Shown: positions 7,826 through 33,000, counted from the stretch's first letter. The stretch: 64,000 nt of DNA from an uncultured delta proteobacterium (GCA_963771175.1 CAVYSY010000036.1:62385-126384), one strand, 5' to 3'. Notes: generated by a model from the sequence alone, not told the origin. Numbers and translations are program-made.

Positions 7826-9147
7826 GCTTCAGCTACCACCGTGACGTGCTGCCCAACGGCCTGCGCGTCGTCACCGTCGAGACCCCGCACCTGCACACCG
7901 CCCTGCTCGCGGTGTACGTGCGTACCGGCAGCCGCCACGAGACGGCCGCCAACAACGGCGTCAGCCACTTCCTGGAGCACCTCTTCTTCCGAGGCACCGA
8001 GGGCTGGCCGGACACCATCAAGATGAACACCGCCGTGGAGGAGGTGGGCGGCAACCTCAACGGCGTCACCACGCGAGACCACGGCTACTACTACACGCCC
8101 CTGCACCCGGCGAACCTGGACGTGGGGCTGGCCGTTCTCGGGGACATGCTCACCCGCCCCAAGCTCACCGACATGGAGGTGGAGCGGAACATCATCCTCG
8201 AGGAGATGCTCGACGAGGTGGACGAGAAGGGCCGGGACATCGACATCGACAACCTGTCCAAGCAGCTCCTCTTCGGCGACCACCCGCTGGGCTTCAAGAT
8301 CGCCGGCACGCGCGAGTCCGTGTCGAGCCTCACCCACCAGCAGGTGCTGGAGCACTTCGCGCGCCACTACGTCACGGGCAACCTGGTGGTGACGGCGGCG
8401 GGCCGGGTGAAGCGCGACGAGGTGCTCGCGCTGGTGGAGCGCCACTTCGCGCGGATGCCCATGGGCTCCGAGAGCCTCGATATCCCGCCGCCGCTCACCC
8501 CGGGCGGGCCCAACTTCCACTTCGTCACGCACGACGAGGCCCAGACGGAGTTCCGCATCAGCTTCCGCACCGTCCCCGAGCACCACGAGGACTGGCCGGC
8601 CCTGCAACTGCTGCGGCGCTTCCTGGATGACGGACTGTCCTCGCGGCTGCCCTTCGAGATCGTGGAGAAGCGCGGGCTCGCCTATTCGGTGCATGCGTCG
8701 CTGGAGGCCTTCCACGACACGGGCGTCTTCGAGATCGAGGCCGCGAGTGCCCCGGATCGGGCCTCGCTGGTGGTGGGGGAGACGTTCCGGGTGTTGGGCG
8801 AGCTGTGCGACAAGGAGGTGGGCGAGGAGGAGCTGGCGCGCGCCAAGCGGCGGCACCGGATGCTGCTGGAGTTCTCGCAGGACTCGCCGGGAGAGCTTGC
8901 GGGGTGGTTCGGCGGGACGGAGCTGTTCCGTCAGCCCGAGTCCTTCGGCCGGCGAGCGGATCTGGTGGACGCGGCCAGCGCGGCCCACGTGCGCGAGGTG
9001 GCCCGGCGCTACTTCGCCCGGGAGAACCTCACCGTGGTGGCCGTGGGCCAGCGCAAGGGCGCCAAGGCCCTGGAGAAGGTGGTGGAGACGGCGGAGGGAC
9101 TGCCCTCGGCGCCCGCGCCCAGCCGCCGACGCTCCAACGCGACGTGA
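7822..9147 (+). CDS. M16 (pitrilysin-family) zinc peptidase
   Basis: Inverted zinc motif HFLEH, LPNGLRVV N-terminus, SSRL...RGLAYSV. ATGA overlap with the kinase gene. Confidence 0.92.
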   Translation: MSFSYHRDVLPNGLRVVTVETPHLHTALLAVYVRTGSRHETAANNGVSHFLEHLFFRGTEGWPDTIKMNTAVEEVGGNLNGVTTRDHGYYYTPLHPANLDVGLAVLGDMLTRPKLTDMEVERNIILEEMLDEVDEKGRDIDIDNLSKQLLFGDHPLGFKIAGTRESVSSLTHQQVLEHFARHYVTGNLVVTAAGRVKRDEVLALVERHFARMPMGSESLDIPPPLTPGGPNFHFVTHDEAQTEFRISFRTVPEHHEDWPALQLLRRFLDDGLSSRLPFEIVEKRGLAYSVHASLEAFHDTGVFEIEAASAPDRASLVVGETFRVLGELCDKEVGEEELARAKRRHRMLLEFSQDSPGELAGWFGGTELFRQPESFGRRADLVDAASAAHVREVARRYFARENLTVVAVGQRKGAKALEKVVETAEGLPSAPAPSRRRSNAT

Positions 9148-12000: not shown

Positions 12001-12336
12001 ATGGACCCATTCGTGCGGCGCCTCGTGGAGAGGCTCCATGACCCAGCGCGCCCCCTGTCGCGCAACCGGCACTTCCACACGTTCGACACCCCCGAGGGTC
12101 GGATGGCGCTGAAGGTGTACAAGCGGCTGAACAGCCTCCACCAGGACATCCTCGCCTGCGTGAAGGAGGGCCGACGCGCGCGCCTCTTCCGCCAGGTGAA
12201 CGACGAGGGCGAGCACCGCATCGAATTGCACTTCGAGCGGATCGCCGGCCGTCGCGTGTCCCACCTGAAGGCGGCCGAGCTGGAGCTGCTCGCCAACCTG
12301 CCGGGCGTGCGTGACGCGCTCGACGGCGACCTCTAG
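12001..12336 (+). CDS. Hypothetical protein (MDPFVRRLVERLHDP...LSRNRHFHTF)
   Basis: Strong GC3 codon bias from ATG 12001. Confidence 0.7.
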   Translation: MDPFVRRLVERLHDPARPLSRNRHFHTFDTPEGRMALKVYKRLNSLHQDILACVKEGRRARLFRQVNDEGEHRIELHFERIAGRRVSHLKAAELELLANLPGVRDALDGDL

Positions 12337-12452
12337 GCCTGGGTGGCGCCCAGAGGCATCCGCACCACCCGGCGCAGGCCGATGAAGTAGAGGACCGCGA
12401 GGAGCGCGGTCATCAGGCCCCACAGGGCGTAGTTGTCCACCGGCAGCGTTGG
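12333..12452 (-). pseudogene. Probable 3' remnant of a membrane-protein gene
   Basis: Reads PTLPVDNYALWGLMTALLAVLYFIGLRRVVRMPLGATQA* with genome-typical codons. It shares the CTAG stop with the convergent gene, and the frame degenerates upstream with an in-frame stop. Confidence 0.45.
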
Positions 12453-12602
12453 TGCAAAGGCAAGCCCTTTCTTCTGGCCTACCCGGGGCAGCGCCCAGTG
12501 TGTCAGCCAGACAACAAAACATGGAAGTCAAGTCTTTCTCGTTCCACGGGTTGCTGGCCATATCGCGCTGGAGTCCCCCCCACAATCCGACGGAGAAGAT
12601 CG

Positions 12603-14174
12603 ATGTCCTGGCTGCGTGTCATTGCCCTATCGGCCATGGTCCTGGCGCTGAGCCTCGGTACCACCCCCGCATCCGCCTCATCCTTCCGCCTCGCCAACAT
12701 CATGGTGCGCGATGGAGTGGTGCTGGATGCGAATGTCTTTACCCCCGACACGCCGGGGCCGCACCCTGCGATCATCTTCATCACCAGTTGGGCGTTGCCC
12801 AACATCGAGTACCTCGTGCAGGCCCAGCAGTTCGCCGACGCCGGGTACGTCGTGCTCTCGTACACCCCCCGCGGCTTCTACACCTCGGGCGGTTACATCG
12901 AGACGGCTGGGCCCAAGGACGTCAGCGATGTGAGCGACATCATCGACTGGCTGCTCACCAACACCTCCGCGGATCCGGCGCGCATCGGCGCGGCGGGCAT
13001 CTCGTATGGCTCGGGGATCAGCCTGCTCGGCTCCGCGTTCGACTCGCGCATCCGTGCCGTGGCCGCCGTGAGCACGTGGACCGACCTCCAGTACTCGCTG
13101 CTCGCGAACCAGACCCGCCACCAGCAGGCCGCCGGGCTGCTGAAGCTCTCCGGCGTGCTGACGGGGCGGCCCTCGGCGGAGCTGCAGCAGATTCTCTCGG
13201 ACTACTTCGACAACCGGAACCTCGCGGGGATCAGCGCCTTCGCCCAGGTGCGCAGCGCCGCGACGTACCTCGACCGCATCAACGCGAACCGCCCCGCGAT
13301 CCTCATCGCGAACGCCTATGGCGACAGCCTGTTCGCGCCCAATCAGCTCTCCGACTTCTACACCCGGCTGACGGGGCCCAAGCGGCTCGAGCTGCGCCCG
13401 GGAGATCACGCCATCCCGGAGCTGACCGGCGTCCTCGGTCTGCCCAATGACGCATGGACCAGCGTGCACCGCTGGTTCGACTACTACCTGCGTGGCGTGA
13501 ACACCGGCATCGCCGCGGAGAAGCCGGTCCAGCTCCAGGTACGTGGCCAGAGTGGCTACGAGGCCTATTCGTCGTGGAGTGAAATCTCGACGAGCACCGC
13601 GCGCTACAACCTGGGCGAGGTGAACTGGTGGAACGGCGAGGGCGAGCTCGTGTCGAGCGCGCAGACCGGCTGGAGCCGGACGGTCTTCGCGGGCGACGAC
13701 ACCGTCGCCAACGGAGGCATCGTGATGCTGACGAACGGCGCCGAGGCGCTCACGGGTGAGCCGCCGATCGCGTGGATTCCCGCGGTGGACCGGGACAACG
13801 CGGGCGTCTGGCAGTCGGGCTCGCTGACGAGTGCGCGCCGTCTGCGTGGGGCCGCGCACCTGCGCCTGACGGTGACTCCGGGCAGCTCCGGGCAGACGAC
13901 GATCATCGCCTACCTCTACGACACGGACGCGCTCGGGACCGGGCACCTGGTGACGCATGTGGCCTACACGATCCGGGGCGCGGTGGCCGGCCAGGCCTAC
14001 ACCGTGGACACCGACTTCCCGGCCACGGTCTACGACGTGCCGAGCGGGAACCGGCTCTCGCTCGTCGTCGACACCGTCGACCCGCTCTACGCCGACCAGG
14101 GAGCGCTGTTCACCTCGGTGAAGTTCTCCTCGCCGGGGACCAATCCGTCCTACGTGTCGCTGCCGCTCAAGTAA
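12603..14174 (+). CDS. Secreted CocE/NonD (peptidase S15-like) alpha/beta hydrolase
   Basis: Signal peptide MSWLRVIALSAMVLAL..ASA, MVRDGVVLDANVF, nucleophile motif GISYG, C-terminal jelly-roll domain. Confidence 0.85.
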   Translation: MSWLRVIALSAMVLALSLGTTPASASSFRLANIMVRDGVVLDANVFTPDTPGPHPAIIFITSWALPNIEYLVQAQQFADAGYVVLSYTPRGFYTSGGYIETAGPKDVSDVSDIIDWLLTNTSADPARIGAAGISYGSGISLLGSAFDSRIRAVAAVSTWTDLQYSLLANQTRHQQAAGLLKLSGVLTGRPSAELQQILSDYFDNRNLAGISAFAQVRSAATYLDRINANRPAILIANAYGDSLFAPNQLSDFYTRLTGPKRLELRPGDHAIPELTGVLGLPNDAWTSVHRWFDYYLRGVNTGIAAEKPVQLQVRGQSGYEAYSSWSEISTSTARYNLGEVNWWNGEGELVSSAQTGWSRTVFAGDDTVANGGIVMLTNGAEALTGEPPIAWIPAVDRDNAGVWQSGSLTSARRLRGAAHLRLTVTPGSSGQTTIIAYLYDTDALGTGHLVTHVAYTIRGAVAGQAYTVDTDFPATVYDVPSGNRLSLVVDTVDPLYADQGALFTSVKFSSPGTNPSYVSLPLK

Positions 14175-14227
14175 CGGAGCAGGTGCCTGTTGGCGGGGCC
14201 GGCGGACTCGACGCCGGCCCCCGTTGC

Positions 14228-16394
14228 TCAGGGATGCGCGATGACGATGAGCGTTGACGCCCGAGCTTCGACGCACGTCATCACCTTGCGCATGGTCACG
14301 GGGTCCAGCGCACCGAACGCCTCGTCGAGCACCACGACACTGGCCCGCTGCAGCAGCGCCCGGGCCACGAAGACACGGCTCTGCTCCCCATGCGAGAGCT
14401 GCCACCCGCTCTCCCCGACCAGTTGCATCAATCCCGAGGGCATCCGGGCCAGCAGCTCCCCCAGCCCCAGCTCCTCACAGAGCGCTCGGGCGTTTTGCAG
14501 ATCCTCCTGCGAGGGAGGCCAGGCGCGGCCCAACAGCAGGTTCATGGCCAGCGTGCCGGACACCACGTGGTTCTCGTGGAACTGAGGAGCACTGGCGATC
14601 TGCGCGCCCCACCCGTGCGACGTCCAGGTCGCCATGTCCAGGCCTCCCAGCAACAACAGCCCCGAGCCCTGGCCCCTCAACCCCGTCAGGATGGAGGCGA
14701 ACGTCGACTTGCCCGAGCCAGAGGGCCCCTCGAGCAGCACGCGCTCTCCCGAGCGAACCACCAGAGAGGCCCGCTCGAGCACCGCCCGTGGCGCCCCCGC
14801 GTGCTTGAAGACCAGATCGCGCACCTCGAGCAGGGCCTGGGCCTTCGGGGGCGCCGCGCCTGGGGAGAGAGGAGAGGCGCGGGTCACCCTGCCCTTCTCG
14901 CTCTCACGGGCCGCCTCTCCCGAGGCGTTGGAGCGCTTCGCGGCATCCAGGATGGGACGCACGCTGTGAAACAACACGCGCGCGCCGCTGAGGGCCAGGG
15001 CTCCGGTGGTCAGCGCCGCCAGCGCGCGCGTCGCCATGAGCGCGGCCCCCACTCCCACGGCGATCCTCGCGGTCGAGGCTCCCGCGAGCACGCCTGGGAG
15101 CGTCGCGAGGATCGCCACCGGGAGGAGTCCCCGCCTGGAGAGCGCCACCACCCGCGCCGTCGCCGCGTCCCACTGCTCGGAGGCCTCGGCATAGTGGGCC
15201 AGCTCATGGTCCTCCTCCTCGTGCCAGCGCGCCGGCAGCTCCTGCGCGAGCCGCGTCCGGTGGCCGAGCATCCGCTCGATGAGCGCATGCGTCATGACGA
15301 CCCGCGCCTCCGTCCACCTGCGGAAGCGTGAGCGACTGGCGCGCGATCAGCACCGCCAGCAAGCAGCAGAAGCCCCCCAGCACCAGCAGCCCGAGCCAGC
15401 CCGCGGGGCCGGTCACCATCACGCTCGCCGCCAGCACCAGATCGATCGCCGCCAGGAGGCTGGTGAAGCTGCCCACCAGCGCCATCTGCTCCATCCCCGC
15501 GCTCTCGAAAGTCCTCCCGACGTACTCGCCAATTCCACCGCGGCGCGCCTCGTCCACGGGCAGCGCGAGCGCCCCCGCCAGCAGGTCGCCTGCGCAGCAG
15601 CGCGGAGAGGTCCATCGCCAGGGACCCCTGCGACCAGGCCAGCGCCGCCTGGAGCGGCACCATCGTCAACCCCATGAGGGCCCAGGCCCAGAGCCACCCA
15701 TGGTCGAGCTGCCCATTGAACGCGCCCCGTCCAATCAACCACCAACCGGCGAGCAGGCACACCTGGACGACCACCGCCAGCAGCAAGAGCAGGACCAGCC
15801 GCCGTCCGGCCCGCAGCGACCGCAGGTGATGGACCAGACGGGCTCCAGGTGGCAGCCGGAGCGTGCGCGCGGCGATGAGGTGGGTATTGGCGAGCTGGGC
15901 TCCCAGCAACGCCCGCCGGGCCAGGGTCCGCTGGGGTGCCGGCAGTCCCGCTCGCTCCAGGACGCGATCGGCCACGGGCCCCTGTTGCGCCCTCGACGAT
16001 CGCCTGCACGGCGGCGGTCAGCAGGGAGAAGGGAACCTCGTGCGGCGTCTCATCCGGGGCGATGAGGTCCGCGGCTCTCCCCCGAGGGGGACACGCGAAG
16101 CAGTGCGAGCACCCTACGCCCCTGGGTGCTCGGCACATCCACGAGGGCCGGGGCCGCGCGGCCCAGGGCACGTTCCACTTCGCCGTGGCGCGTGTAGAGC
16201 AACTCCAACTCGAGCCCCAGCGCATGGGCCGAGGCGTCCAGCCACGCCCCCACGCGGCTCGGGTCCTCGGGTACCGCGCGCGAGAGGACCGGGAGCGGAT
16301 TGGGGAGCGGCAACCGCGCCGCACGCGCCAGCGCCTCCAGGGCTTCGCCCGCTCGCGCGAACGGCCAGGACACTGCGTCCAGCTCACCCGACAT
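14228..16394 (-). CDS. ABC transporter (fused TMD+ATPase), second subunit; split by about 4 indels
   Basis: Start MSGELDAVSWP overlaps the end of the upstream transporter. TM segments lie in ORFs 15292..15975 and 15204..15557. Walker A GPSGSGKS, signature LSHGE and LDE lie in 14228..15295. Confidence 0.8.
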
Positions 16395-19090
16395 GAGCCA
16401 CCCCCTCCTCCTCCTCCTCGTGTCGCTCGGAGAGCACGCCCTGCTCCAGGACCAGCCGCCTCCACCCCTCCCGCCTGGACAGCTCCCCCCGCATCGACGC
16501 CTCCTCATCCAGCAGTGCGCGGTAGTGGGAGTCCTCGCACGCCGCGAGCGCCTGGGGAGCCCCGTCCTCGACCAGCCTCCCGTCCTTGATGACCAGGACG
16601 CGGTCGAACGAGAGCGTCTCGGCGATGTCATGCATGATGCAGAGCAGCGTGGTCCCCTCGAATCCCTGTCGTGCCCGCTCCAACAGCGCCGTGCGACGGT
16701 CTCGCTCGAGTCCCCGGAACGGCTCGTCGAAGATGGCCAGCCGCACCCCTGGCCGGAGCAACGCCCGGCCCAGGCGCACCCGCTGCCCCTCACCGCCCGA
16801 CAACAGACTGCCCCCCTCGCCCAGCCGGGTCTCGAGCCCCTGGGGCAGCTTGTCGAGCAACTCGATGAGGTCGGCCCTGTGCAGCACCTGGCCCACCCGG
16901 GGCAGCACCTCGGCCTCGTCGGCGCCATAGGCGAGGTTGTCCACCAGGGACTTGTTCCAGAGCGTCACCTCGGGCTCCAACCACGCCGTCTCCCGCCTCA
17001 GCCGCCACAGGGCCGCCCCCTCCAGCGGCTCGCCATCCACCTCGACGCGGCCCGCGGCCGCCGGTGCCAGCCCAGGAGGACTGCCCACCAGTGACGATTT
17101 CCCAGCGCCCGAGGGGCCCACGATGGCGACGTGCTCCCCGGGTTGAACCGAGACATCAATCCCTTGCAGGAGGGTGTGGCCCCCGGCCTTCACCTCCACC
17201 TGACGCAGCGAGAACCCAACCCCCCGAGCCCCTTCCACCGGTCGCTCCGTCTGTCCTGGGGTGGCCAGCGCGACGCTCGTGGACACCTCGTCCGGAGCGA
17301 GCAGTGGCTCCATCAATCGGCCAGTGAACGACGAGGCGGCGGGGTACTGGCGCAACGCCTCGGCGATCTGCTTGCCCAGCGTCGGCACGGCGAGCGCCCA
17401 GTAGACGAGCAGCAGGACAGCCCCGGGTTGTACCCCCTTCGAGAGGGCGTGCAGGACAATGACAACCGAGCCCCCGGTGGCGGCGAGGGAGGCGAGCGTG
17501 TCCGCCGTGGTGCTGCGGCGCAGCAACGTGCGGGCCGCGGAGATGAACTCGTGCAGCGGCTCCTCATGAGCCCGGCGGAGCGTCAGCTCGGCATGGTGCG
17601 CCCGCAGCGCCACGGCCCCGCGCAAGGCGTCGAGGTAGAAGCGCGAGAGCACCCCGTCGAAGTCCCGCATCCGGCGATCGGCTTCGAGCAACGAGCGCTG
17701 CGCGACGAGGGGGATGCCGAGCGCCAGCCCACCCGCCAGGAAGATCAAGGGGGCGCTTCGCGGAGCCAACCACGTCAGCCCCACGAGCGTCACGAACAGC
17801 TCGGCGGCGGCGCGCAGCACCAGGGCCGCGAGGTTGGGCACGTTGCGCACCATGTGGATGCCATGGCAGCGCTGGGCCATGTCCGAGATGAGCCGGCTGC
17901 GGAAATAGCTGTCACCCAGGCGTGGGATTTTGTCGAGGAACGCGAGCCGGAGGCGGAGTTCCAACCGCCGTCCCAGGCGGAGCGTCCCGAGAGAGAGAGG
18001 CAGCTCGATCGCGAACAGCACGCCCATCAGGACGAGCAGCGTCACGACGCCGGCGATCCGCTGTTCGGTGGTCGTGAGATAACGACCCGCGTCGATGACC
18101 CCGCGCAGGAGCAGCGCCTCCAGGAAGCCGCCCACCGCCGCGGTCACCCCCATGGCGGCGAGCACCCTCGGCGTGAGCACCCCGTCCCGGCGCATCAAGG
18201 CCACGAGCTCACGCAGGGGGCGGGTGGGCGCCTCCTTCAAGACGGCCTCGAGCCCCGGAGACAGCGGGGGTTCATCCTCCCCGTGCTCGCCGCGCAGCCC
18301 CTTCGCCCGGATGCAGACGACGCCGCGCAAGGTGATCTCCTCGGCGTCCGGCCCTCCCACCGCCGTCCAATAGGCGGGGGGAATGAGCTCCTCGGCGCGA
18401 CCCTCGTCCAGGGCCGTGCGCACCTCGAGCAGGAGCTGCTCGACGAACGCCGCCGCCGTCTCGCCAGGCTGGAGGCCGTCACCCTCCACGAGCGTCTGCA
18501 CCAACCGCACCGTCGCATCCAGGCAGGCCAGGCCCTTCCAGGTGGAATCCCCGAGCGCCTCGGCGACGAGTCGCTCCGACAACGGCCCCTCGACGAGCTC
18601 GGACAGCCTGCGACGCAGACCCACGAGGAACTCCTCCGTGCCGGCCCACTCCCGGAACCCCTCGGCGGACACGGGCATCGCGTGCACGAAGCACCGGTCG
18701 AGCAGCTCGGCGGCGGACACCCACCGCCGCCCCAGCGCCGGATCCATGATCTGGACGCGGTTGCCCCACTTCTTCCAGAGCACCACGAAGTGCAGGTTGC
18801 CGTCCGCGAGCCTCACCACCACGATGGCCGGCAGCGCCCCGGTCTCCTCGAGGAGCAGGTGATCGCGCGGGAGCATGCCCTGCTCCGCATCCAGCCCGAG
18901 GCTGACGGCCAGCTCCTCGAGCACATCCATGGACGTGCCGTCGACGTCGGTCTGGCAGAGCTCTCGGAGCCGTCCATAGCTGACCGGCACGCCGGAAGCC
19001 GCCGAGCAGGGCCTTGAGGGCCGCCGGACCGCAGTCCATGGCCGACGTCTGGATGACTTCTGGAACGAAAAGACGTGGTGCACCCGCCAT
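16384..19090 (-). CDS. Peptidase C39-containing ABC transporter (PCAT); frameshift near 18995
   Basis: MAGAPRLFVPEVIQTSAMDCGPAAL (catalytic Q..C), HFVVL (His), MDPA (Asp), then TMD, Walker A GPSGAGKS, LSGGE and FDE. Confidence 0.88.
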
Positions 19091-19093
19091 GGC

Positions 19094-20290
19094 TCAGCTC
19101 CCCCCCTTCGGCGACTCCGTCCCGCCCTCTACCCGCAGGACCCTGGGTTGCTCCCGTGCCGGACGGTCGAGCCCCCGACCCAAGGTGCGAAGCACGAGCT
19201 GCGACGGCGTGGCCTTCCCCACCGCGACGTCCACGAGGCCAGGCAACCCATGCTCGAGCGGAATGCCCGGCGGCAGCTCATCCACCGAGAGCTCGACTCG
19301 CACCAGGCCATCGCGAGGCTCACTCGCCACCGCCACCACCGTGGCCTCCAGCATCCCGAACTCCGCCCAGGAGAAGCCCTCCAACCGCATGCGAGCCCGC
19401 TGACCCTCGCGGATACGCCCCAGGGCCTCCGGGGAGAACTGCGCGACGACGCGCACGGGTCCACCGGCGACGATGGTCGCGATGGGGTCACCGGCCTTGA
19501 GCTGCGCGCCCACGCGTACGGAGCTCGTCTCGCCGAGGACGCCATCCGCCGGCGCTCGAATGATACGGCGCTCCAGCTCCTCGCGCAGGCGCTCCACGTT
19601 GGCGCGCGCGACGCTCTCGTCCGACTCGAGCCGGGCAATCTCTCCCTGCAGCGCGGCGAGGCGGGTGCGCCGATCGGTGGACTGAATGCCACCTTCCGCT
19701 CTCACCCGCGCCAGCGTGGCCCGCGCGGCCTGCTCCGCGGCCAGGGACCGCTCCAGCTCCGTATGGGACCTGCTCCACTCCATCTCGCTCAACACGCCCC
19801 GCTTCCAGAGCCGCTCGGTGGTGGACTCCTCCTCCTTGGCCCGCCGCGCGACCGCCTCGGCATCGATGAGCCGGGCCCGCGCCTCCTCCACGCCCGCGAT
19901 CCCCTGCCCTTTTTGCTCCACCAGGCCATGCTGCTCGGCCTCGAGCTCCGCGCGCGCCGCCTCGAGCTGAGGCCCCAGTCCTTGAAGCACGGCCTCCGCC
20001 TCCGCTACCCGGCGCTCCTCCTGCACATGCTCCAGCTCGACGAGCACATCTCCCGCATGCACGGGGCGGTGAAGCTCCACCTGCGTCTTCACCACCCGTC
20101 CCGCCACGGGTGCATCAATGGCGTACACCTCGCCATGGAGCTCCAGACGCGCCTGCGCGCTGCGCTCGTAGACGATGATGCGCGCCTGGAGGAACCAGCC
20201 CCCCCAGATCGCGAGCAGCCCCACCGGTATCAGCCAGAGCGCCGGCCGCCCGCGCCCGCGCACCAGGGCGCGCCAGGTGCGTGGAAACAT
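19094..20290 (-). CDS. HlyD-family membrane fusion (secretion adaptor) protein
   Basis: N-terminal TM, IDAPVAGRV and IRAPADGV lipoyl-like halves, long alpha-helical hairpin. Start codon uncertain. Confidence 0.88.
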   Translation of the reverse strand: MFPRTWRALVRGRGRPALWLIPVGLLAIWGGWFLQARIIVYERSAQARLELHGEVYAIDAPVAGRVVKTQVELHRPVHAGDVLVELEHVQEERRVAEAEAVLQGLGPQLEAARAELEAEQHGLVEQKGQGIAGVEEARARLIDAEAVARRAKEEESTTERLWKRGVLSEMEWSRSHTELERSLAAEQAARATLARVRAEGGIQSTDRRTRLAALQGEIARLESDESVARANVERLREELERRIIRAPADGVLGETSSVRVGAQLKAGDPIATIVAGGPVRVVAQFSPEALGRIREGQRARMRLEGFSWAEFGMLEATVVAVASEPRDGLVRVELSVDELPPGIPLEHGLPGLVDVAVGKATPSQLVLRTLGRGLDRPAREQPRVLRVEGGTESPKGGS

Positions 20291-20456
20291 GCCTTCGACC
20301 TTCAAGTGGCTGGCCAAATCGCCCCCCGTCTCGACCGTGCCGTCCTGCGGATGGAGGGGGCCCGTTGGCTTTGTCAGGGAGAGTGACGCTCCGAGGGAGC
20401 GGCCTGCTCGTCCTCCAGGCAGGCGTCTCGCCCAGGCATTCCGGAGGTGCCTCGCG

Positions 20457-20489
20457 TCACAAGAACCACCCCCCTGCTCAGACCGTACG
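20457..20489 (+). promoter_or_regulatory. Conserved upstream motif, copy 1 (TCACAAG-N11-TGCTCA-N2-CCGTACG)
   Basis: Near-identical arrangement at 22646..22679. Both copies end 27-30 nt before an ATG. Confidence 0.5.
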
Positions 20490-20516
20490 CGAATCACACC
20501 TGTCTGGAGCTCTCGC

Positions 20517-22328
20517 ATGAGTCAGAACGCTGTATCGGTTGATCCCCACGAGACGCTGTACCTGCCCCTGCGGCGTCGCTTCATGAGCGAGTACGTGACC
20601 ACGCCCGAGGGCACCCGGGAGCTGCGCATCTTCTACGGCCTCAAGGAGATCACGATCGATGAGCCGGACCTGCTCTCCTTCGGAGAGAACCTGCTCAAGC
20701 AGGACGAGTTCATGGCGGGCAGCGCCACCCTATGGAGCGAGGGTGAGCCCTACCCCTGGGAGCGCGTGAGGGAGCTGCTCGAGGCGCTGCTGGACGAGGA
20801 GATTCTCTCGCGCGAGGCCCCGAAGCCCGCGCCTTCGGAGAGTGACGTTCATCGAAGCTGGATGGAGGCCGAGGCCCGGCGGGTCGCGCCCACCGAGCCC
20901 CTGTGGTGGAACCCGGACTGTCCCCGGGTCATGGAGCGGTTGGTGGGGCGGCCGCTGGAGTTGGGCTTCCTCGAAGCGGTGATTCCGGTGCATCGCGTCG
21001 CCCACCCGGCGCTCGACGCGGAGGGGCGCCATATCGGGGAGAGCAACGTCTTCCCCGACGCCATGCGAATGAAGCTTCCGACGGATTGGCGACCGTGCCC
21101 CTACCCGGGCAGCCGCTATCGGGACGAGGCGATGATGAACGTGACGGCGCTCAAGTCGATGACACGGCACTGGAAGTCCGTGTTGCAGGGGGTGCTCGCG
21201 GTGCGAGAGGAGTTCCTGCGCCACCATCCCCTGCTCCCGGACGGGCGCTGGCGGCTGGGGGATCTTCACGCCCTGTGCTGCGCCGTGCTGGCTCTACCAA
21301 CCCTGCGGTTGATGCGCGCGAACGCGCCCGTGCCCAATGGCGAGCTGGATCCCGTGCTCTCCTCCATGTTCCGGGTGACGGACGGCGTGCGGATGGTGAC
21401 GGCCTACATGCTCTTCCTCCCGGAGCTGCCGATGCCGTACGACACGCCCATGACGGCGGCCGAGCTGCTCCGCTTCACCGAGCAGGACAATCACTTCCTG
21501 TCGACGCGGGGCGTCTGCGCCGGTCCCCCGCACATGGTGGAGGAGTTCCTCGCGACGCTGATGGATGGCAAGCCCGTGGCGGGCGTGCCCAGGCCCGCGG
21601 AGGAGTGGGACGACGAAATCCCCACGGCGATGGATTACGGGATGCGGGGACTCCAGCTCTATTGCCTCCAGTTCAACCTGTGGAGCCACATGTGCCGCGC
21701 CTACGAGTCGATCCGCGCGGCGCTGCTCGACGTGGAGGATGAGCCGGGTGGAATCTGGAGCCGGATGCGCGCGCGTGTCGAACGCGATTGGGCGATGATC
21801 CTGCCCACGCGACTGCACACCTCCACCCAGCGAGATTGGGCAGAGGCCCGCTACATCGAGATGTTCGATCAGGCCCAGCGCGGCCTGAAGGGCTTCCGGG
21901 AGGACGCGCTGCTTCGCTTGCAGGACGTGTTCACCCCCGCGAGGGACGAAATGGATGGGAAGACCCGCCGGCAACTCCGACAGATGCTCCGCTCGCTCGC
22001 GGGCTCGCCCCCGGGGGCCCGGAGAGACGCCCTCGACACCATCGCGGACGCCGCGGCGGAGTTCCTGGCCCTCGAGCGCTCAACGCTTCGCGCCCTGGAA
22101 GGTGTTCAGCGCCAGGTCAATGCGTTGCTCCAGCGCCCCCATCCAGCGCGAAAGTTCTCCAGCGCGGATCTCTCGCTGCATCTCCGCCTGCGCCAGGGCA
22201 CCATCGGCGTGCTGCCCTACCTGCTGGATGTATTCCGGGATGAGCTGGGCATCGTCGTCGAGAATACGGAGGACGACACCCGCTGCGATCTGGTCAGCTC
22301 GCCCTACCAGCAGGTAGCCCAGATGTGA
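20517..22328 (+). CDS. Uncharacterised 603-aa protein, candidate RiPP maturase (possible N-terminal RRE/winged-helix)
   Basis: Clean ORF with typical codon bias directly upstream of three precursor genes. The N-terminal ~100 aa end in PWERVRELLEALLDEEIL (wHTH-like). Cys/His-containing segments: HRVAHP, WRPCPYPGSRY, MNVTALKSM, GVCAGPPHM. The ORF is well supported; the function is inferred. Confidence 0.7.
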   Translation: MSQNAVSVDPHETLYLPLRRRFMSEYVTTPEGTRELRIFYGLKEITIDEPDLLSFGENLLKQDEFMAGSATLWSEGEPYPWERVRELLEALLDEEILSREAPKPAPSESDVHRSWMEAEARRVAPTEPLWWNPDCPRVMERLVGRPLELGFLEAVIPVHRVAHPALDAEGRHIGESNVFPDAMRMKLPTDWRPCPYPGSRYRDEAMMNVTALKSMTRHWKSVLQGVLAVREEFLRHHPLLPDGRWRLGDLHALCCAVLALPTLRLMRANAPVPNGELDPVLSSMFRVTDGVRMVTAYMLFLPELPMPYDTPMTAAELLRFTEQDNHFLSTRGVCAGPPHMVEEFLATLMDGKPVAGVPRPAEEWDDEIPTAMDYGMRGLQLYCLQFNLWSHMCRAYESIRAALLDVEDEPGGIWSRMRARVERDWAMILPTRLHTSTQRDWAEARYIEMFDQAQRGLKGFREDALLRLQDVFTPARDEMDGKTRRQLRQMLRSLAGSPPGARRDALDTIADAAAEFLALERSTLRALEGVQRQVNALLQRPHPARKFSSADLSLHLRLRQGTIGVLPYLLDVFRDELGIVVENTEDDTRCDLVSSPYQQVAQM

Positions 22329-22402
22329 TTCGAATGAGAATCACAAGGAGTTCGTCCCTCGCTCCTCCTGTGTGAGGTGTCTCAGAAAGGAGGAGTAAAC
22401 AC

Positions 22403-22513
22403 ATGAAGATCAAGACGAAGATTCGGGGTGGTGCGCGCACGTGCTTCGGTGGCATCTTCGGACCCATCGTCGTTCGCCCCCCAGTCCTCCGACCGCCCAT
22501 CTCCCTCGCGTAG
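22403..22513 (+). CDS. Double-glycine precursor peptide 1: MKIKTKIRGG-ARTCFGGIFGPIVVRPPVLRPPISLA (36 aa)
   Basis: Strong SD (AGGAGGAG) upstream; leader nearly identical to precursors 2 and 3. Confidence 0.85.
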   Translation: MKIKTKIRGGARTCFGGIFGPIVVRPPVLRPPISLA

Positions 22514-22547
22514 AAGAATCCAGGGAGAAGGATCCGCGTTTGATTCA

Positions 22548-22583
22548 AGTCGCCAGTGGGCGGAGCATCGCCTGCTGGCGACT
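22548..22583 (+). terminator. GC hairpin after precursor 1 (no clear U-tract)
   Basis: AGTCGCCAGTGGGCG-GAGCAT-CGCCTGCTGGCGACT; near copy of 22919..22954. Confidence 0.55.
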
Positions 22584-22645
22584 GTGTCTTGCGGGGTACG
22601 GCTCGTCGTCCCACACGGGCCTTTTGAAAACAACTCAGACAAAAA

Positions 22646-22679
22646 TCACAAGCGCCACGCCCCATGCTCAATCCGTACG
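22646..22679 (+). promoter_or_regulatory. Conserved upstream motif, copy 2 (TCACAAG-N12-TGCTCA-N2-CCGTACG)
   Basis: Matches 20457..20489; lies in an AT-richer gap 30 nt before the ATG of precursor 2. Confidence 0.5.
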
Positions 22680-22709
22680 TAGCGCGTAGCGCTCAGGAGG
22701 AGCAAACAC

Positions 22710-22778
22710 ATGAAGGTCAAGACCAAGGTTCGTGGTGGTGCTCGGATGTGCAGCGGCGGCAGCGGCACTTTCTTCTAG
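22710..22778 (+). CDS. Double-glycine precursor peptide 2: MKVKTKVRGG-ARMCSGGSGTFF (22 aa)
   Basis: CTCAGGAGGAGCAAACAC-ATG ribosome-binding context; synonymous differences relative to precursor 3. Confidence 0.85.
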   Translation: MKVKTKVRGGARMCSGGSGTFF

Positions 22779-22828
22779 CCGCAGAAGTACCCGATGGATT
22801 CGCACTCTCACTCAGGAGGAGCAAACAC

Positions 22829-22894
22829 ATGAAGATCAAGACCAAGATTCGGGGCGGAGCTCGCTCGTGTAGCGGCGGCGGCACCTTCTTCTAG
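22829..22894 (+). CDS. Double-glycine precursor peptide 3: MKIKTKIRGG-ARSCSGGGTFF (21 aa)
   Basis: Identical CTCAGGAGGAGCAAACAC-ATG context; tandem paralog of precursor 2. Confidence 0.85.
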   Translation: MKIKTKIRGGARSCSGGGTFF

Positions 22895-22918
22895 CAGCAG
22901 AAGTACCCGTTGAATTCC

Positions 22919-22960
22919 AGTCGCCAGTGGGCGGAACATCGCCCGCTGGCGACTCTTTTT
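22919..22960 (+). terminator. Intrinsic terminator after precursor 3
   Basis: AGTCGCCAGTGGGCG-GAACAT-CGCCCGCTGGCGACT followed by CTTTTT. Confidence 0.75.
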
Positions 22961-22981
22961 CGTGGGAGGGTCTGGAGGGGA

Positions 22982-24484
22982 CTACCCGGCGGCGGCGGGA
23001 GAGACAGGGCGCTGCACCTGTACGCCGGGCAGCATGGGCGCCGGGTTGAGCGACAGGATGAGCAGGCTGCGCAGGGCCTCCTTGAGGTCCTCTCCCACGC
23101 TGGCCGCCCCCGCCGGTGCGCCCTGCAGCTCCGCCGGCACCGGGTGGCCCACCACCACCACCGGAATGCGGACGTCCCACGCCAGGAAGTACGCCAGCTT
23201 CACCGCCGCCTCCGACGTGTCGAACAGCAGCGCCCCCGCGGCTCCCGAGCTGAACGGCCGCCACAGCGGCCTCGCCGCCTCCGCCGGAGGCAGCACGCAG
23301 AAGTCCAGGTGCAGCAGCTCGTGCAGAGCCATCCGCCCCAGCGTCCCGAAGCCGCTCTTCACCGCGGGGGGCTCGGCCGCCACGGCCGCGATGTCCGGCA
23401 TCTGCGACAGCAGCCGGCGCGCCACCGCCGGACCACTGCCGCACACGAAGATCTTCGCGGTGGCCTCGCGCGAGGCGCCCTTGCCCCGCAGGATGCGTCC
23501 GCGCAGCGCGTGCAGCTCGGCGGGCCCCATCAGCGGGCCGCTGTGCCCCTCCTCCGTCTCCCCCTCGGCTACGCGGGCCACGCCCTTCTGGAGGAGCGTG
23601 TGCAGCACGCCCACCACCTCCAGGTCCGTGGCCGGCGCCAGGTCCAACACCTCGCCCACCGCCCGGGGCTGGCGCAACAGCTCCACCACCTGCGCCGTCA
23701 CCGGGTGCTGGTCCTGCGTCAGGTCCGCGTCCGGCGCGAGCACCAGCCGGGCGTTGCGCGGCGGCAGCCCCGGCAGCAGCCGGTTCACCTCGTCCGCCTG
23801 GCGCATCGCCTCCAGCAGCGAGTCGTCCATCCCGCGCTGGATGCGCGGCTTTCCCCCGCTGCCTCCCGGCGCGAAGGTGAACGAGCCCTCGGCCCACACC
23901 AGCAGCCGGAAGAGGGCCTTCTCTCCCTCGGCCCGGCCCACGCGCGCGTTCGCCGGGCGGCCCTCCACCACCGATATCTCTCCGCGCTCGTTGCCCCGCT
24001 CCAGCGTCAGCTTCCCGCTGCGCTTGTTCATCCCCAGAATCTGCATCAGGTCCGGGATGCTGAGCTGGCTGAGCGAGCCTTCGATCTCCTGCACATCGCT
24101 CTTGAGGTCCTTCGCCGCCTCGTTGCGGCGGAAGACGTGCTCGATGCGGGAGAGCACCTCGTCGATGTTGAAGGGCTTGCGCAGGTAGCCCTCACGCAGG
24201 CCACGGGCCTTGTCCGCCTCGAACCTGCCGGTGGAGACCAGCACCGGGATGTCATCCGTGCGCGGGTTGGTGCGCAGGATGTTGATGAAGGTGCGCGCGT
24301 CCAGCAGATGGCACGCCTCATCGAAGAGGATGAGCTCCGGGTGGCGCAGCACGGCCACCTCCAGGGCCCGCGAGCCATCCGGCGCGTAGTGCACCTGGTA
24401 GCCCTTGGTGCGCAACGCACGGGAGAGCGGGCGGACCGACTCGAGATCGGGGTCGGCGATGAGGATCTTTCGAACCTGGGCCAC
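22982..24484 (-). CDS. Atypical response regulator: receiver + DUF4388 + degenerate small-GTPase-like C-terminal domain
   Basis: KILIADPD...LILFD...YLRKPF receiver. IEGSLSQLSIPDLMQILGMNKRSGKL is typical of DUF4388. C-terminal KIFVCG...LWRPFSSGAAGALL. Confidence 0.8.
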   Translation of the reverse strand: MAQVRKILIADPDLESVRPLSRALRTKGYQVHYAPDGSRALEVAVLRHPELILFDEACHLLDARTFINILRTNPRTDDIPVLVSTGRFEADKARGLREGYLRKPFNIDEVLSRIEHVFRRNEAAKDLKSDVQEIEGSLSQLSIPDLMQILGMNKRSGKLTLERGNERGEISVVEGRPANARVGRAEGEKALFRLLVWAEGSFTFAPGGSGGKPRIQRGMDDSLLEAMRQADEVNRLLPGLPPRNARLVLAPDADLTQDQHPVTAQVVELLRQPRAVGEVLDLAPATDLEVVGVLHTLLQKGVARVAEGETEEGHSGPLMGPAELHALRGRILRGKGASREATAKIFVCGSGPAVARRLLSQMPDIAAVAAEPPAVKSGFGTLGRMALHELLHLDFCVLPPAEAARPLWRPFSSGAAGALLFDTSEAAVKLAYFLAWDVRIPVVVVGHPVPAELQGAPAGAASVGEDLKEALRSLLILSLNPAPMLPGVQVQRPVSPAAAG

Positions 24485-27266: not shown

Positions 27267-30200
27267 TCAGCCCTGCTCGTCGGTTTTCGGGTCGGAGGGA
27301 GCTGCCTCGGATGCCGGCGAACCGGCGGGCGAGGCGGGTGTGCTCCCCTTTGGGCGGCGAAGTAAATCATTCTTCACCGCGTTGATCTCGGCGTTGGCCC
27401 GCGCGTAGATGTCCTGAACGGTGTTCGACCCCGCCCGGGCCGAGCTGCGCTTGAGCGTGGCCAGTTCGGACGCCTGTCCCTCCAGGCGCTGCTGCTGCTC
27501 CGCGATTGCCGCATCGCGCTCGGCCAGGGTGGCCTGGAGGGTCTCGAGCTCGCTCTGCAGGCGCTCCACTTCCTCGGACAGCTCCAGCACGGCCTCGGAG
27601 TCCGATACCGGCTTGCGCGTTTCGAGCTGCTTGATCTTCTCCCGCAACCCGGCCCGCTCGCTCTCGAGGGCCTGGAGCCGAGCCCCCAGCGCCTCGGCGG
27701 CCTGGGCCTGCTTCGCCTTCTCCGTACGCTCGGCGTCGAGGAACTTCACCGCCTCCGCGGAGGCCGCCTCCAGCGCGGTCACCCGGCCCTCCAGACGGAT
27801 ACGGGCCGCGCGGGCCACCGTGAGATCCGAGCTGAGCCGCTCACGCTCGGACACGAGCCCGGCCTTCTCCGATTCCAGCTTCGCGAACTGCTCCTGCACG
27901 GCCTGCGCGGAAGCCTCCCGCTCCCGGGCCTGCCGCTCGACCTCGTTCGCCTTGGACTCCAGCTCGGCCAGCTTCTCCTTCGCGGAGGCCTCCTGCTCCC
28001 GGGCCTGCTGTCTGGCTTCATCCGCCAAGGCCTCCAGCTCGGCCAGCTTCTCCTTCGCGGCCTCCAGACTGGCGGTGGTCTCCGAGAGACGGACCTCGAG
28101 CTGGCTCGCCGACTGCTCCGCCTCCGAGACCCGCTCCCGCTCCGCCTCGGTGGCCGAGTGGGCCCGGACCAGCTCCGCGCGTACGTCCTCGAGCTGGGCG
28201 CGGGTGGCCTCGACAGCCGCGCGCTCCTTCTCCAGCTCGGCCCGGGCGGCCTCGACCGCCGCGCGCTCCTCCTGGAGGGCGGATTCGAGAGAGGGCGCCT
28301 TGCCCGCGATACGCCGCGCCGATTCGAGCTGCACGGTGAGCAGCTCCGCCTGCTCGTGCTCCGCGGTGAGCCGGGCCTGGGCCTCGGTCAGCTCCGTCTG
28401 GAGGTGCGCGATGTGGGCATCGCGATCGCGCAGGCCCATGTGGGCTTGCTGGAGGGCCATCGAGGCCTGCTGTGCCTGGAACCGGGCGGCCTCGAGCTGT
28501 CCCACCTGGGCCCGCAGCACCGCCAGCTCCTCGTCCTTCCTCGCGAGGTCGTCCCGGAGCCCCTCCAGCTCCACCCGGGACTCCACCGCGTCGCGCTTCC
28601 GGGCCTCGCGCTCCGTGGAGATGGCCTCCTCGCGCGCACGGGCCTCCGCGAGCCGCGCCTCGGCCTCGCGCAGCTTCTCCTCGAGCTCGCGGGCGCGCGA
28701 GTCCAGGCCAGAGGCCCGGGTGGTCTCGGCCTCGTGCTCGGAGCGCAGGCGCGTGAGGGCCTCCTGCTGCTCCTTGGACGTGCCGCGCTCCCACTCCAGG
28801 CTCGACCGGAGCTCCTCGACGAGCTGCTTCTGCTCGACCAGGGCGACGCCGAGGTCCTTCCCCTCGCGCAGGGCCGTCTCCAGCTCCTCGCGCAGGGCCG
28901 CGGCCTCCTGCCGGGCCACCTCCAGGGCCTCGAGCCGCGCCCGCTCGCGTTCGTCCGCGCCCGCCCGGGCGGACTCCAGGTCCGCGCGCGCCTCGGCCAG
29001 CGACTGCTCCACGGCCTCGCGCCCGGTGCGCTCCGAGTCCAGCTCGCGCCGGGTCTCCGCGAGGGTGGCCTCCACCTGCTCGCGTCCCTGCTGCTGGGAC
29101 TCCGCCTCGGTACGGGCCTGGGCCAGCGAGGCCTCCAGTGCTTCCCGCTCCCGCCGTGCCTCTTCGAGCTCCGCCTCGGTCCGGGCGCGCTGCCGCCGCT
29201 CGGTATCGAGGTCCGTCCGGGCGGTACCGAGCGAAGCCTCGGTCTGCGCCTTGCTCTCGCGCTCCCACTCCAGCTCGGCGCGGGCCGATGCGAACGACTC
29301 CTCGGCCTGGGTGCGCTGCTTCCGCTCGGCGTCGAACTCCGCGCGAACCGACGCGAGCGACTCCTCGGCCTGGGTGCGCTGCCGCCGCTCGGTGTCGAGC
29401 TCCGCGCGGACCTGCGTGAAGGCCTCCTCCGACTGCCCATGCACCTGCTGCGCGGAGTCGAGCTCGGCACGGGCGGAGGCCAGCGCGGCCTCGAGCCCGG
29501 TGCGCTGCCGACGCTCCGATTCGAGCGCGGACCGCTCCTGCGCCAGGGTCTCCTCCACCTCGGCCCACTGCCGCCGCTCCGATTCGAGCTCGGCCCGCTC
29601 CTGCGTCAGAGCCGCTTCCACCCCGGCCCGCTGCTGCCGCTCCCCTTCGAGCTCGGTCCGGGTCCTCGCGTTCTCCTCATCCACCAGGAGACGCTGCTGC
29701 CGCTCCGCCTTCAGCTCCGCCCGGGCCCTCGCGAGCGACTCCCGCGCCTCCGCGAGCTGCTGCCGCTCCCCCTCGAGGTCCGCCTGCGTCGACGTCCCCG
29801 CCTCCTCCAGCAGGGTGCGCTGATTCCGCTCGACCTCGAGCTCGGCCTGGACTCGCGCCAGGGCCTCTTCCAGCCGCGCCCTTCCCTGCTGTTCGAGCGC
29901 GAGCCCGGCCAGGGCCTGCTCTCGGGCCTCGTCCGCCTTCGCCCGCTCCTGCTGCTCGGCCGCGATGGTGCCCTGCGTCGCCTTCAGCGCCGCGTCGAGC
30001 CGGGCGATCGACTCCACGTCCGAGGCCCGCGCCCGCTCCAGCTCGGTGAGCGTCGCCTCGGCCTCCACCACGCGCCGCCGTAGGGCACCACGCTCATCGG
30101 CCCACTCCTGCCGTTGGGCCTCCAGCTCGGCGAGGACGCGCGCCGCCTCCTCGCGCGCGGCCACCTCCACCGCCATCTGGTTCTCGAGCCCCTCGGCCCG

Positions 30201-32027: not shown

Positions 32028-32127
32028 GAGTTCGGTCGGCCGAGTATAGCCCTGGGAACGGTTGTCCCAAGGAAAGCATCGGGGAGGGAAATCGCCTCTC
32101 CGCTCGGACGTCTGGGGAGTGAGCGAT

Positions 32128-33000
32128 ATGAATCCGATGATGAACCCTCAGCGCCAGCAGAGCTTCGGCCGCCGGGCCACGAGCGCCTTCACCCGGCTGC
32201 TCGTCACCCTCCTCATCCTCGGCCTGGGCGGGGCGGTGGTCTTCCTGCTCTCCCAGCTCAACGCCCGCACCTTCACCCTGGCCCAGGAGAACGGGCACCT
32301 GGTGGTGATGAAGGGCCGGATGCTGCCGACGGGGTCGGTGCCCTACCGCCCCGGGGATGCGCGGCAGGCGGACACCTACGCCCCCATTCCCCTCGAGGGC
32401 CGGGACGTCTCGAGCCTCCTGGAGCAGAAGTTCACCGAGCGGGACGAGCTGGACCGGGCCCTCTTCCCGGTGCTGGAGGGGCTCGCCCGACCGAGGGTGG
32501 ACTCGGACGAGCCGGGCCGGCTGGAGAAGGGCCTCTACTACCTGCGGCGCGCGGAGCTTCTGTCCGGGCTGTCGGAGGAGCAGCGGCGCGCGCTGGAGAC
32601 GATGAAGGCGGACGTGGCCTTCTTCCAGGCGAGGCAGAAGCTGGAGGAGGCGCGCCGGGACGTGACGGAGGCGCTGACGCAGCTCAAGCTGGCGGCGGAG
32701 AGCCGGAACCGGAACACGCAGCGGGCCAACCAGATGCTCACCACGATAGGCCCGGCGGCACAGGCCCTGGAGAAGGCGCTGCGGGCCGTCGATGCCAGTC
32801 TGGCGGGGTCCGCCGGCATGCCGTCCGAGACGCACCTCCCCGCGCCGGCTCCCGAGGGACAGCAGGCGGCGCCCCAGCAGACTCCCGAGACCCCGACGCC
32901 CGCGGCGCCGCGGCAGGAGCCGGGAGTGCGGAGCACCGACAGCGAGACGCAGCAGCGCCCCACCGGGACGGGGCAGAGCAGCACGGGACCGGAGCACTGA
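32128..33000 (+). CDS. Hypothetical single-pass membrane protein with helical domain and P/Q/T-rich tail
   Basis: [20 protein letters not shown]; typical codon bias. Confidence 0.75.

Follow-up and report, generated by a model that had tools for sequence, protein, structure and literature searches.

The DNA considered here is a 64,000-nt stretch from an uncultured delta proteobacterium (CAVYSY010000036.1:62385-126384; hereafter the window), and this analysis concerns the gene cluster at positions 14,228 to 22,960 of it. The cluster seems to be one copy of a widespread, unnamed module of the type that produces peptides that are ribosomally made and post-translationally modified (RiPPs), with very small open reading frames (micro-ORFs) as the precursor genes; a probability of about 0.7 is assigned to this reading. 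On the plus strand, the gene of a 603-aa protein, the presumed maturase, is followed by three micro-ORFs, each preceded by a Shine-Dalgarno (SD) sequence and each beginning with MK(I/V)KTK(I/V)RGG. The minus strand carries the genes of an HlyD-family adaptor, of a peptidase-containing ATP-binding cassette (ABC) transporter with a C39 domain (PCAT) and of a second ABC transporter. An earlier reading made from the bare sequence (the sequence-only reading) had described the 603-aa ORF and its micro-ORFs, and all of them are present as it described. The layout is what generically marks a RiPP locus, namely short leader-core precursor genes adjoining the gene of a putative modifying enzyme, and it is rated here as a module of RiPP-like kind whose enzyme family is new and whose leader is shorter than usual. 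The further claim is that of a new RiPP class in Myxococcota and Pseudomonadota, having a 10-residue leader among the shortest conserved ones known, an all-helical enzyme fold not seen before, an undescribed reaction at an Arg-flanked Cys, libraries of up to 14 cores and lineage-specific tailoring. This claim is considered only slightly more probable than its negation.

The evidence that carries this reading is comparative. A word-indexed search gave 390 homologues of the 603-aa protein; the 120 listed are all hypothetical or unnamed proteins without a Pfam domain. An exhaustive search gave 748 cluster representatives of the family at E ≤ 1e-3. When one genome of each species was scanned, 208 stretches encoding the protein turned up; the best 80 of them were kept and correspond to 76 loci (L001-L076) from Myxococcota, Gamma-, Beta- and Alphaproteobacteria, together with contigs of bins labelled Planctomycetota and Acidobacteria; several of the hosts are methanotrophs. 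The loci were scanned for micro-ORFs with a strict leader pattern plus an SD, and then with a widened pattern plus an SD. The strict pattern found 86 micro-ORFs, each sharing the strand of the maturase homologue. The widened pattern found 160 in 73 of the 76 loci, and every one (160/160) has the same orientation as the maturase homologue nearest to it; the distance to that homologue is no more than 1 kb for 131 of them and no more than 3 kb for 137. In an earlier scan, two of 131 matches were on the minus strand, each beside a minus-strand copy of the maturase gene. Of the three loci without a micro-ORF, two have hardly any sequence or none downstream of the gene, L058 being a contig of only 2.3 kb and L061 stopping about 116 nt past it; L003 has no such explanation. 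In the window, the leader pattern occurs three times on both strands taken together, and these occurrences are the three ORFs. The number of precursor genes per locus is 1 to 14.

The ORFs of all loci were also clustered into neighbour families, with antisense shadows set aside. ABC genes recur in 41 of the 76 loci, HlyD genes in 33, OEP/TolC genes in eight and S8 subtilase genes in five. Maturase, precursor, HlyD, PCAT and second ABC (ABC2) genes are co-linear in Steroidobacter and several other proteobacteria. The co-occurrence check named in the sequence-only reading therefore came out in its favor. In a FastTree tree of 78 family members, the core types follow the maturase clades, and the window sequence groups with the locus of an Archangium metagenome-assembled genome (MAG), L001, with an SH-like support of 98. 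Tandem maturase-precursor units, two or three per locus, are seen in three Myxococcales MAGs (L025, L026, and L033); one unit of L026 is inverted, and its precursors are inverted along with the maturase.

The precursors of the loci are 21 to 56 aa long. Their leader, as read from the micro-ORFs of the window and of the loci, has 10 residues, M-K(Q)-I/V-K-T/S-K/N/R-V/I-R-G/A-G, in which basic and aliphatic residues alternate in a β-strand-like manner. Position −1 is G in 160 of 163 leaders, position −2 is G, A or S, and position −4 is V, I, L or M. The third positions of the leader codons are variable (0.32-0.49 at codons 5-10), whereas the second ones hardly vary, the G/A position 9 being the exception. 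It should be mentioned that T-ending codons predominate at leader codons 7, 8, and 10 of the 163 micro-ORFs of the window and L001-L076 (GTT in 77, CGT in 81, and GGT in 86). The G+C content of the window is about 70%. These codons suggest a constraint from RNA or translation initiation on top of the constraint on the peptide.

The cores that follow the leader are hypervariable and rich in Gly and Pro, with lengths of 5 to 47 residues (median 17). Exactly one Cys is found in 142 of 153 unique cores, and Arg stands at −2 to +1 of this Cys in 107 of the 122 single-Cys peptides of the first set; the distance of the Cys to either end of the core varies widely. Unusual cores occur behind the same leader. 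Those of two Rubrivivax loci (L042 and L075) have an early R-C followed by more than 15 glycines in a row, and those of two Crenothrix/Methylococcaceae loci (L051 and L065) are Cys-free and rich in His, Asp, and Gly, such as ...DDAPGHVR....

A profile search with the peptides retrieved 175 database entries at E ≤ 0.01. Among the 120 entries listed, all are hypothetical or unnamed except for some from Myxococcus fulvus, to which UniRef gives the automatic name "Lipoprotein". In NCBIfam, nothing was found at E ≤ 1 for the three micro-ORFs of the window, and nine precursors of other loci had no match even at E ≤ 10. The name "Lipoprotein" on several M. fulvus homologues, together with a basic N-terminus followed by a Cys, would agree with lipoprotein-type signal sequences. 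The myxobacterial forms have neither a hydrophobic h-region nor a lipobox, however, and their Cys comes 3-4 residues past the GG; in the window cores, by inspection, the Cys is 4 residues past the GG and an h-region is likewise absent. It might also be supposed that the micro-ORFs are not translated at all. Strong SDs and a synonymous-versus-nonsynonymous codon pattern kept across phyla speak for translation, and positions 14000-23300 gave no Rfam match at E ≤ 0.1. The two suppositions together are given almost no weight.

The 603-aa protein itself has no match in Pfam (models up to 2025) or NCBIfam 20.0. At E ≤ 10, Pfam showed no known maturase-class domain, no PqqD and no helix-turn-helix (HTH) family in 25 family members. 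As the sequence-only reading had it, LanB/C/M, YcaO, radical SAM, P450, and ATP-grasp are absent as Pfam domains from the scanned ORFs of 14228-22328; lasso B/C and DUF692/MNIO domains are absent from these ORFs and from the 25 family members. About 40 positions are conserved at 95% or more in 173 members (27-100% identity). They include E153, R160, H163, D167, R171, E175, N177, C194, G198, R200, N208, R230, R286, D289, R292, a G-V-C334-A-G-P loop, Y374, Q531, and R540. In some family members, the protein is fused to a GNAT domain or to an MTS-type methyltransferase with DUF7059; no fused form longer than 1056 aa was found, which is weak evidence. Neither a signal peptide nor a membrane segment was seen in the 603-aa protein by eye.

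An AlphaFold model from a 25-sequence alignment has a predicted local distance difference test score (pLDDT) of 87.5 and a predicted TM-score (pTM) of 0.83. In this model, an N-terminal winged-helix domain, strands followed by helices (residues ~13-93), precedes an all-helical remainder (~105-600). Seven conserved arginines lie in the all-helical domain, and the loops of both conserved cysteines are low-confidence parts of the model. With the whole model, Foldseek gave a single consistent local match, to the winged-helix domain that JmjC ribosomal oxygenases carry. Foldseek matches to fumarase/aspartase, polyprenyl/terpene synthases, Fic, and HD domains were rejected as generic helices (TM ≤ 0.14, prob ≤ 0.12), and the ESM Atlas gave for the whole protein only sub-threshold winged-helix leads, the best with a score of 0.83.

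The N-terminal domain was also modelled alone (pLDDT 88.8). The predicted strands are residues 16-21, 27-33, and 36-40, and the predicted helices are residues 43-52, 60-65, and 74-86. Foldseek with this model matched, weakly in all cases (E ≥ 0.048), the microcin B17 synthetase McbBCD (6gri_2, prob 0.95), LynD (4v1t, 0.89), TruD (0.80), and the RiPP recognition element (RRE) of PbtF (8t19, prob 0.54, TMt 0.54), as well as ThcOx and TbtB. No RRE was matched by sequence in Pfam or NCBIfam, and a profile search of the PDB gave only DEP-domain matches (E 0.06-0.34). The predicted domain would be compatible with an RRE-like leader-binding domain. With the RRE-dependent maturases (LynD/TruD, McbBCD, PbtF) the 603-aa protein shares, as modelled, a strands-then-helices domain (prob 0.54-0.95, TMq 0.48-0.55), the fusion of this N-terminal domain to a catalytic-looking domain and the position of the gene beside the precursors. 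It differs from them in that its all-α domain has no YcaO, E1-like, LanB/C or radical SAM match, and E ≤ 1e-3 was never reached.

In the proposed pathway, the leader would dock on the N-terminal winged-helix domain, as leaders do on RREs, and the all-helical domain would modify the single core cysteine. The C39 domain of the heterodimeric PCAT/ABC pair, by analogy with other PCATs, would cut after [GA]-G, and HlyD together with an outer-membrane factor would let the product out. A guess of thiol or metal chemistry comes from the two conserved cysteines and the His and Asp. Since many arginines are conserved, the leading guess for the reaction is one directed at the thiol (alkylation, acylation or sulfur transfer) with an anionic co-substrate, bearing phosphate or carboxylate. 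The spacing C194-x5-R200 is similar to that of a loop in phosphatases and rhodaneses (C-x5-R); this is a lead only.

Several observations weigh against this reading. Modification of the precursor by the 603-aa protein is what we infer from sequence and predicted structure. Foldseek of the whole model against the PDB gave no match at E ≤ 1e-3, residues 105-603 had no usable match in the ESM Atlas, and PDB sequence searches returned nothing beyond apolipoprotein A-I (a helical protein, E ≥ 1.4e-3) and noise from DEP domains, which were rejected; none of the three methods revealed a catalytic fold or a cofactor site. The RRE-like Foldseek matches are weak (E 0.05-0.4), and the top matches are winged helices of JmjC oxygenases rather than RREs. 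Five of the 153 unique cores are Cys-free. The amino-acid conservation of the leader is partly built in because the search pattern was derived from the window; strand, distance, and codon pattern serve as independent controls. As to export, 35 of the 76 loci have no ABC gene in the fetched flanks, many of these being short contigs or extra paralogues, and in the window the exporter genes are frameshifted as assembled. Finally, position −7 is Lys in 149 of 163 leaders and the leader ends at −10, so that C39 cleavage, by analogy with the C39 protease LahT150 (PMC6363468, in the part available), is less certain.

Cleavage after GG had been taken by the sequence-only reading from established knowledge. 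The precursors resemble PCAT-processed double-glycine peptides in their Gly-Gly or Ala-Gly and the aliphatic residue at −4, and the C39 domain of the intact homologues carries the Cys, His, and Asp motifs, as in PCAT proteases. According to the available part of PMC6363468, the recognition motif for LahT150 is the 13 C-terminal leader residues, hydrophobic residues at −7 and −12 are required and the substitution L-7K abolished cleavage. The leaders here differ from these substrates, having 10 residues, Lys at −7 and nothing at −12, and so depart from the canonical double-glycine leader, G-G/A/S at −2/−1 with hydrophobic −4, −7, and −12, as given in that same part of the source. The [GA]-G motif is present, the hydrophobic −7 and −12 residues are missing (PMC6363468, available part), and cleavage at this site would be a supposition drawn from related proteases.

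Unmodified double-glycine peptides, too, typically come with a [GA]-G motif and a PCAT/HlyD cassette. The micro-ORFs might thus encode a class II bacteriocin, microcin or pheromone exported by the PCAT, with the 603-aa protein acting as immunity protein, chaperone or secretion adaptor. The lack of a catalytic fold recognizable by Foldseek or in the ESM Atlas is in line with such a role, and so are the histidine kinase/sigma-54 activator pairs at several proteobacterial loci, as in autoinduced bacteriocin systems. This explanation is regarded as unlikely. The roughly 40 conserved positions, including His, Asp, Glu, two Cys, and seven Arg, look like an active site, the single Cys and its adjacent Arg are kept in cores that otherwise vary freely, and the family has fusions to methyltransferase and GNAT domains. 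In addition, the N-terminal domain is RRE-like in the model, and the lack of a signal peptide or membrane segment by eye would be unusual for immunity to a secreted peptide.

A regulatory role is the other possibility for the 603-aa protein, which might be a cytoplasmic receptor or regulator of signal peptides that works in the manner of RRNPP quorum-sensing receptors, its helical domain binding the peptide. The modelled winged helix followed by a large helical domain, the tiny peptide genes alongside and the two-component genes near some loci would suit this role. On the other hand, three strands followed by helices is presumably the order of an RRE rather than of a DNA-binding winged helix, no HTH family was matched in Pfam, and hypervariable cores with up to 14 precursors per locus do not suit one receptor with one signal. 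RRNPP systems are not known from diderms. This role is judged quite improbable, and the maturase reading is kept.

The three-gene export cassette has the same architecture as that of the NHLP/Nif11 systems (TIGR03794 HlyD, TIGR03796 C39-ABC1, and TIGR03797 ABC2). NHLP families are among the best NCBIfam matches of the window pieces and are the best match of the intact homologue's PCAT. The scores are below the cut-offs: 173.3 versus 853.3 for the PCAT of L022, 99.3 versus 709.4 for its ABC2, and 34.6 versus 156.2 for the HlyD of the window. Because they are so far below, the cassette seems to work like an NHLP system without being a member of it. The leader domains of NHLP and Nif11 precursors are long, as opposed to the 10-residue leaders here.

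Both ABC genes of the window are broken as assembled. The breaks were placed by tblastn of the intact L022 homologues and by alignment of the DNA with four homologues. Across 4.9 kb there are seven frameshifting 1-nt indels, namely single-base insertions near 18995, 17082, 16075, 15986, 15585, and 15330 and a single-base deletion near 17060. In the PCAT gene, residues 1-32, with the DCGPAAL catalytic-Cys motif, are in frame −1 and residues 33-898 in frame −2; the shift is caused by an extra C near 18995, directly past this motif. The +1/−1 pair near 17082/17060 scrambles 7 codons after the Walker A motif. As a result, no single open frame of the window gene contains a C39 domain with its catalytic Cys, a transmembrane domain (TMD), and a nucleotide-binding domain (NBD). 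The PCAT homologues of L010 and L022 are intact, and the closest relative, L001, has a single open frame across the first PCAT indel site. In the second ABC gene (C39-like N-terminal domain, by eye, then TMD and NBD), residues 1-138, 137-273, 270-353, and 354-711 of the 711-aa L022 homologue fall in frames −3, −2, −3, and −1; the insertions near 16075, 15986, 15585, and 15330 belong to this gene. HlyD is 78% identical to its L022 homologue over 403 aa, in one frame and without stops.

The sequence-only reading had called the cluster a complete pathway, and the frameshifts had escaped it. Because both ABC genes carry frameshifting indels, this copy is not a complete pathway as assembled. What holds of its proposal that maturase, precursors, and exporter form a pathway of unassigned class is the co-occurrence and the lack of a match to any known class; completeness is lost, and modification of the peptide keeps the conditional standing given to it above. 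Either the dedicated exporter of the strain would be inactive, or the assembly would be faulty at the ABC stretch.

It might therefore be asked whether the cluster in this genome is a decaying remnant whose exporter genes are pseudogenes and from which nothing is secreted. Seven frameshifting indels within 4.9 kb would suggest this, and none of the sites is in a long homopolymer. Moreover, the other 40 Pfam-scanned ORF pieces of the window mostly match Pfam domains over their full length (ClpB, DnaB, a TonB-dependent receptor, and a Na/H exchanger), and a 1626-aa ORF elsewhere in it remains open. However, the ABC pieces are as similar to their homologues (79-81% identity) as the intact HlyD is (78%), apart from the N-terminal ABC2 piece (54%), and there are no nonsense codons outside the shifted stretches, so any decay would have set in very recently. 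That insertions make up six of the seven indels may indicate an error of assembly or consensus at this place. The maturase gene, precursors, SDs, and terminator are intact, and paralogous loci in related genomes that have no adjacent exporter presumably share one. The case for a remnant is thus a serious one, its odds being put a little short of even.

The features of the cluster are given in Table 1. As the sequence-only reading stated for the minus strand, the hlyD stop (19094) and the C39-ABC start (19090) are separated by a 3-nt gap, and the second ABC gene, starting at 16394, overlaps the end of the C39-ABC gene, whose stop is at 16384. HlyD may start at a TTG at 20305 or at an ATG at 20290. 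No sigma-70-like promoter was found in 20000-23200, and no sigma-54-like site in the intergenic region, the window-wide counts of such sites being those of chance.

Table 1. Features of the cluster in the window (positions counted from its first nucleotide)
Feature	Position	Strand	Evidence
Second ABC exporter gene	14228..16394	−	ABC_tran E 9.2e-20 on the last piece (Pfam); four reading-frame pieces
Peptidase-C39 ABC transporter (PCAT) gene	16384..19090	−	Peptidase_C39 E 4.4e-13, ABC_tran E 3.9e-20 (Pfam); frameshifted
HlyD-family periplasmic adaptor gene, intact	19094..20305	−	HlyD_3 E 5.7e-17 (Pfam)
Divergent intergenic region, 211 nt; promoters of both operons presumed	20306..20516	.	Coordinates
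603-aa protein gene, unnamed family, presumed maturase	20517..22328	+	ORF; homologues; AlphaFold model
Possible hairpin, anti-SD against SD of micro-ORF 1 (weak evidence)	22361..22396	+	Folding; inverted repeat I2
Micro-precursor 1, 36 aa: MKIKTKIRGG + ARTCFGGIFGPIVVRPPVLRPPISLA	22403..22513	+	Leader and SD
Hairpin 3' of micro-ORF 1, near copy of the terminator stem	22548..22584	+	Folding; repeat D2
Micro-precursor 2, 22 aa: MKVKTKVRGG + ARMCSGGSGTFF	22710..22778	+	Leader; direct repeat D1
Micro-precursor 3, 21 aa: MKIKTKIRGG + ARSCSGGGTFF	22829..22894	+	Leader; repeat copy
Intrinsic terminator of the maturase-precursor operon	22919..22962	+	16-bp stem, 11 G-C pairs, tail CTTTTTCG

The three micro-ORF genes are copies of one 93-nt unit, and an SD of the AGGAGGAG type is upstream of each of them in the window. 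The terminator that had been proposed to close the precursor operon is present, as a hairpin at about 22919..22954 with a T-run (−39.5 kcal/mol, z −6.65, equalled by 0 of 200 shuffles). The hairpin after micro-ORF 1 (repeat D2) is 83% identical to the terminator copy, both being 37 nt long; it is predicted at −32.1 kcal/mol (z −3.72) and lacks a clean T-run. The paired hairpins could cause partial read-through and unequal dosage of the precursors. The SD of micro-ORF 1, AAGGAGGAG, is 6 nt upstream of the start. The segment CUCCUCCUG, 15-20 nt upstream, can pair with this SD (−21.8 kcal/mol for the centroid, z −1.89, equalled by 10 of 200 shuffles), whereas the SDs of micro-ORFs 2 and 3 are free in the predicted folds. 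This predicted pairing may tune the translation of precursor 1.

Some neighbours vary with the lineage. A gene of the di-haem CCP/MauG type stands beside the maturase and precursor genes in 15 loci (L002, L012, L014, L015, L020, L035, L036, L040, L043-L045, L050, L057, L071, and L072) and is absent from the window. In NCBIfam it is matched best by "MbnH family di-heme enzyme", with 125.5 bits against a cut-off of 362.85. The enzyme possibly provides a periplasmic oxidative tailoring step in some lineages. This gene and the several methanotroph hosts recall the methanobactin operons; unlike in those operons, the MbnH score is below the cut-off and the gene itself is missing from the window locus. 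Nothing like MbnB or MbnC was seen in the recurrent neighbour clusters (one representative of each of nine clusters was scanned with Pfam), and the precursors and leaders here are presumably unrelated to those of methanobactin. At five beta- and gammaproteobacterial loci (L048, L053, L054, L055, and L071), a histidine kinase and sigma-54 activator pair adjoins the cluster, which hints at regulated or autoinduced expression.

Other genes of the window were left out of the cluster. At the homologous loci, neither the S15 peptidase gene beside ABC2 (12315..14171) nor any of the response-regulator genes downstream is conserved as a neighbour. The 1626-aa ORF (27270-32147, minus strand) has an N-terminal methyltransferase domain and is unrelated to the peptide cluster; the rest of it gave weak, coiled-coil-like tblastn matches to HlyD. 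At 7836-8930 on the minus strand, four ORF pieces with a G+C content at third codon positions of 0.93-0.99 are split by stop codons and overlap a 727-aa ORF in another frame; they may be a broken gene or a shadow frame rich in Gly, Pro, and Ala.

In the searchable full-text literature, which excludes subscription-only papers and supplements, no description of the 603-aa family was found. The TMcin preprint, in the part available, deals with something unrelated to it. Rule-based genome miners are blind to the family, since no annotated family includes the enzyme or the precursors of 21-56 aa. If the 603-aa protein is a maturase, its fold would be new among the enzymes of peptide natural products, as its cysteine chemistry probably would be, and a 10-residue leader with a fused recognition domain would be an unusually compact handle for peptide engineering. 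In the window itself, maturase and precursors are retained next to a disrupted dedicated exporter, a situation provided by nature. The hosts of the family are soil myxobacteria, methanotrophs, and Burkholderiales; given this spread and the large size of the family, its products may be ecologically common signals, antibiotics or metal ligands.

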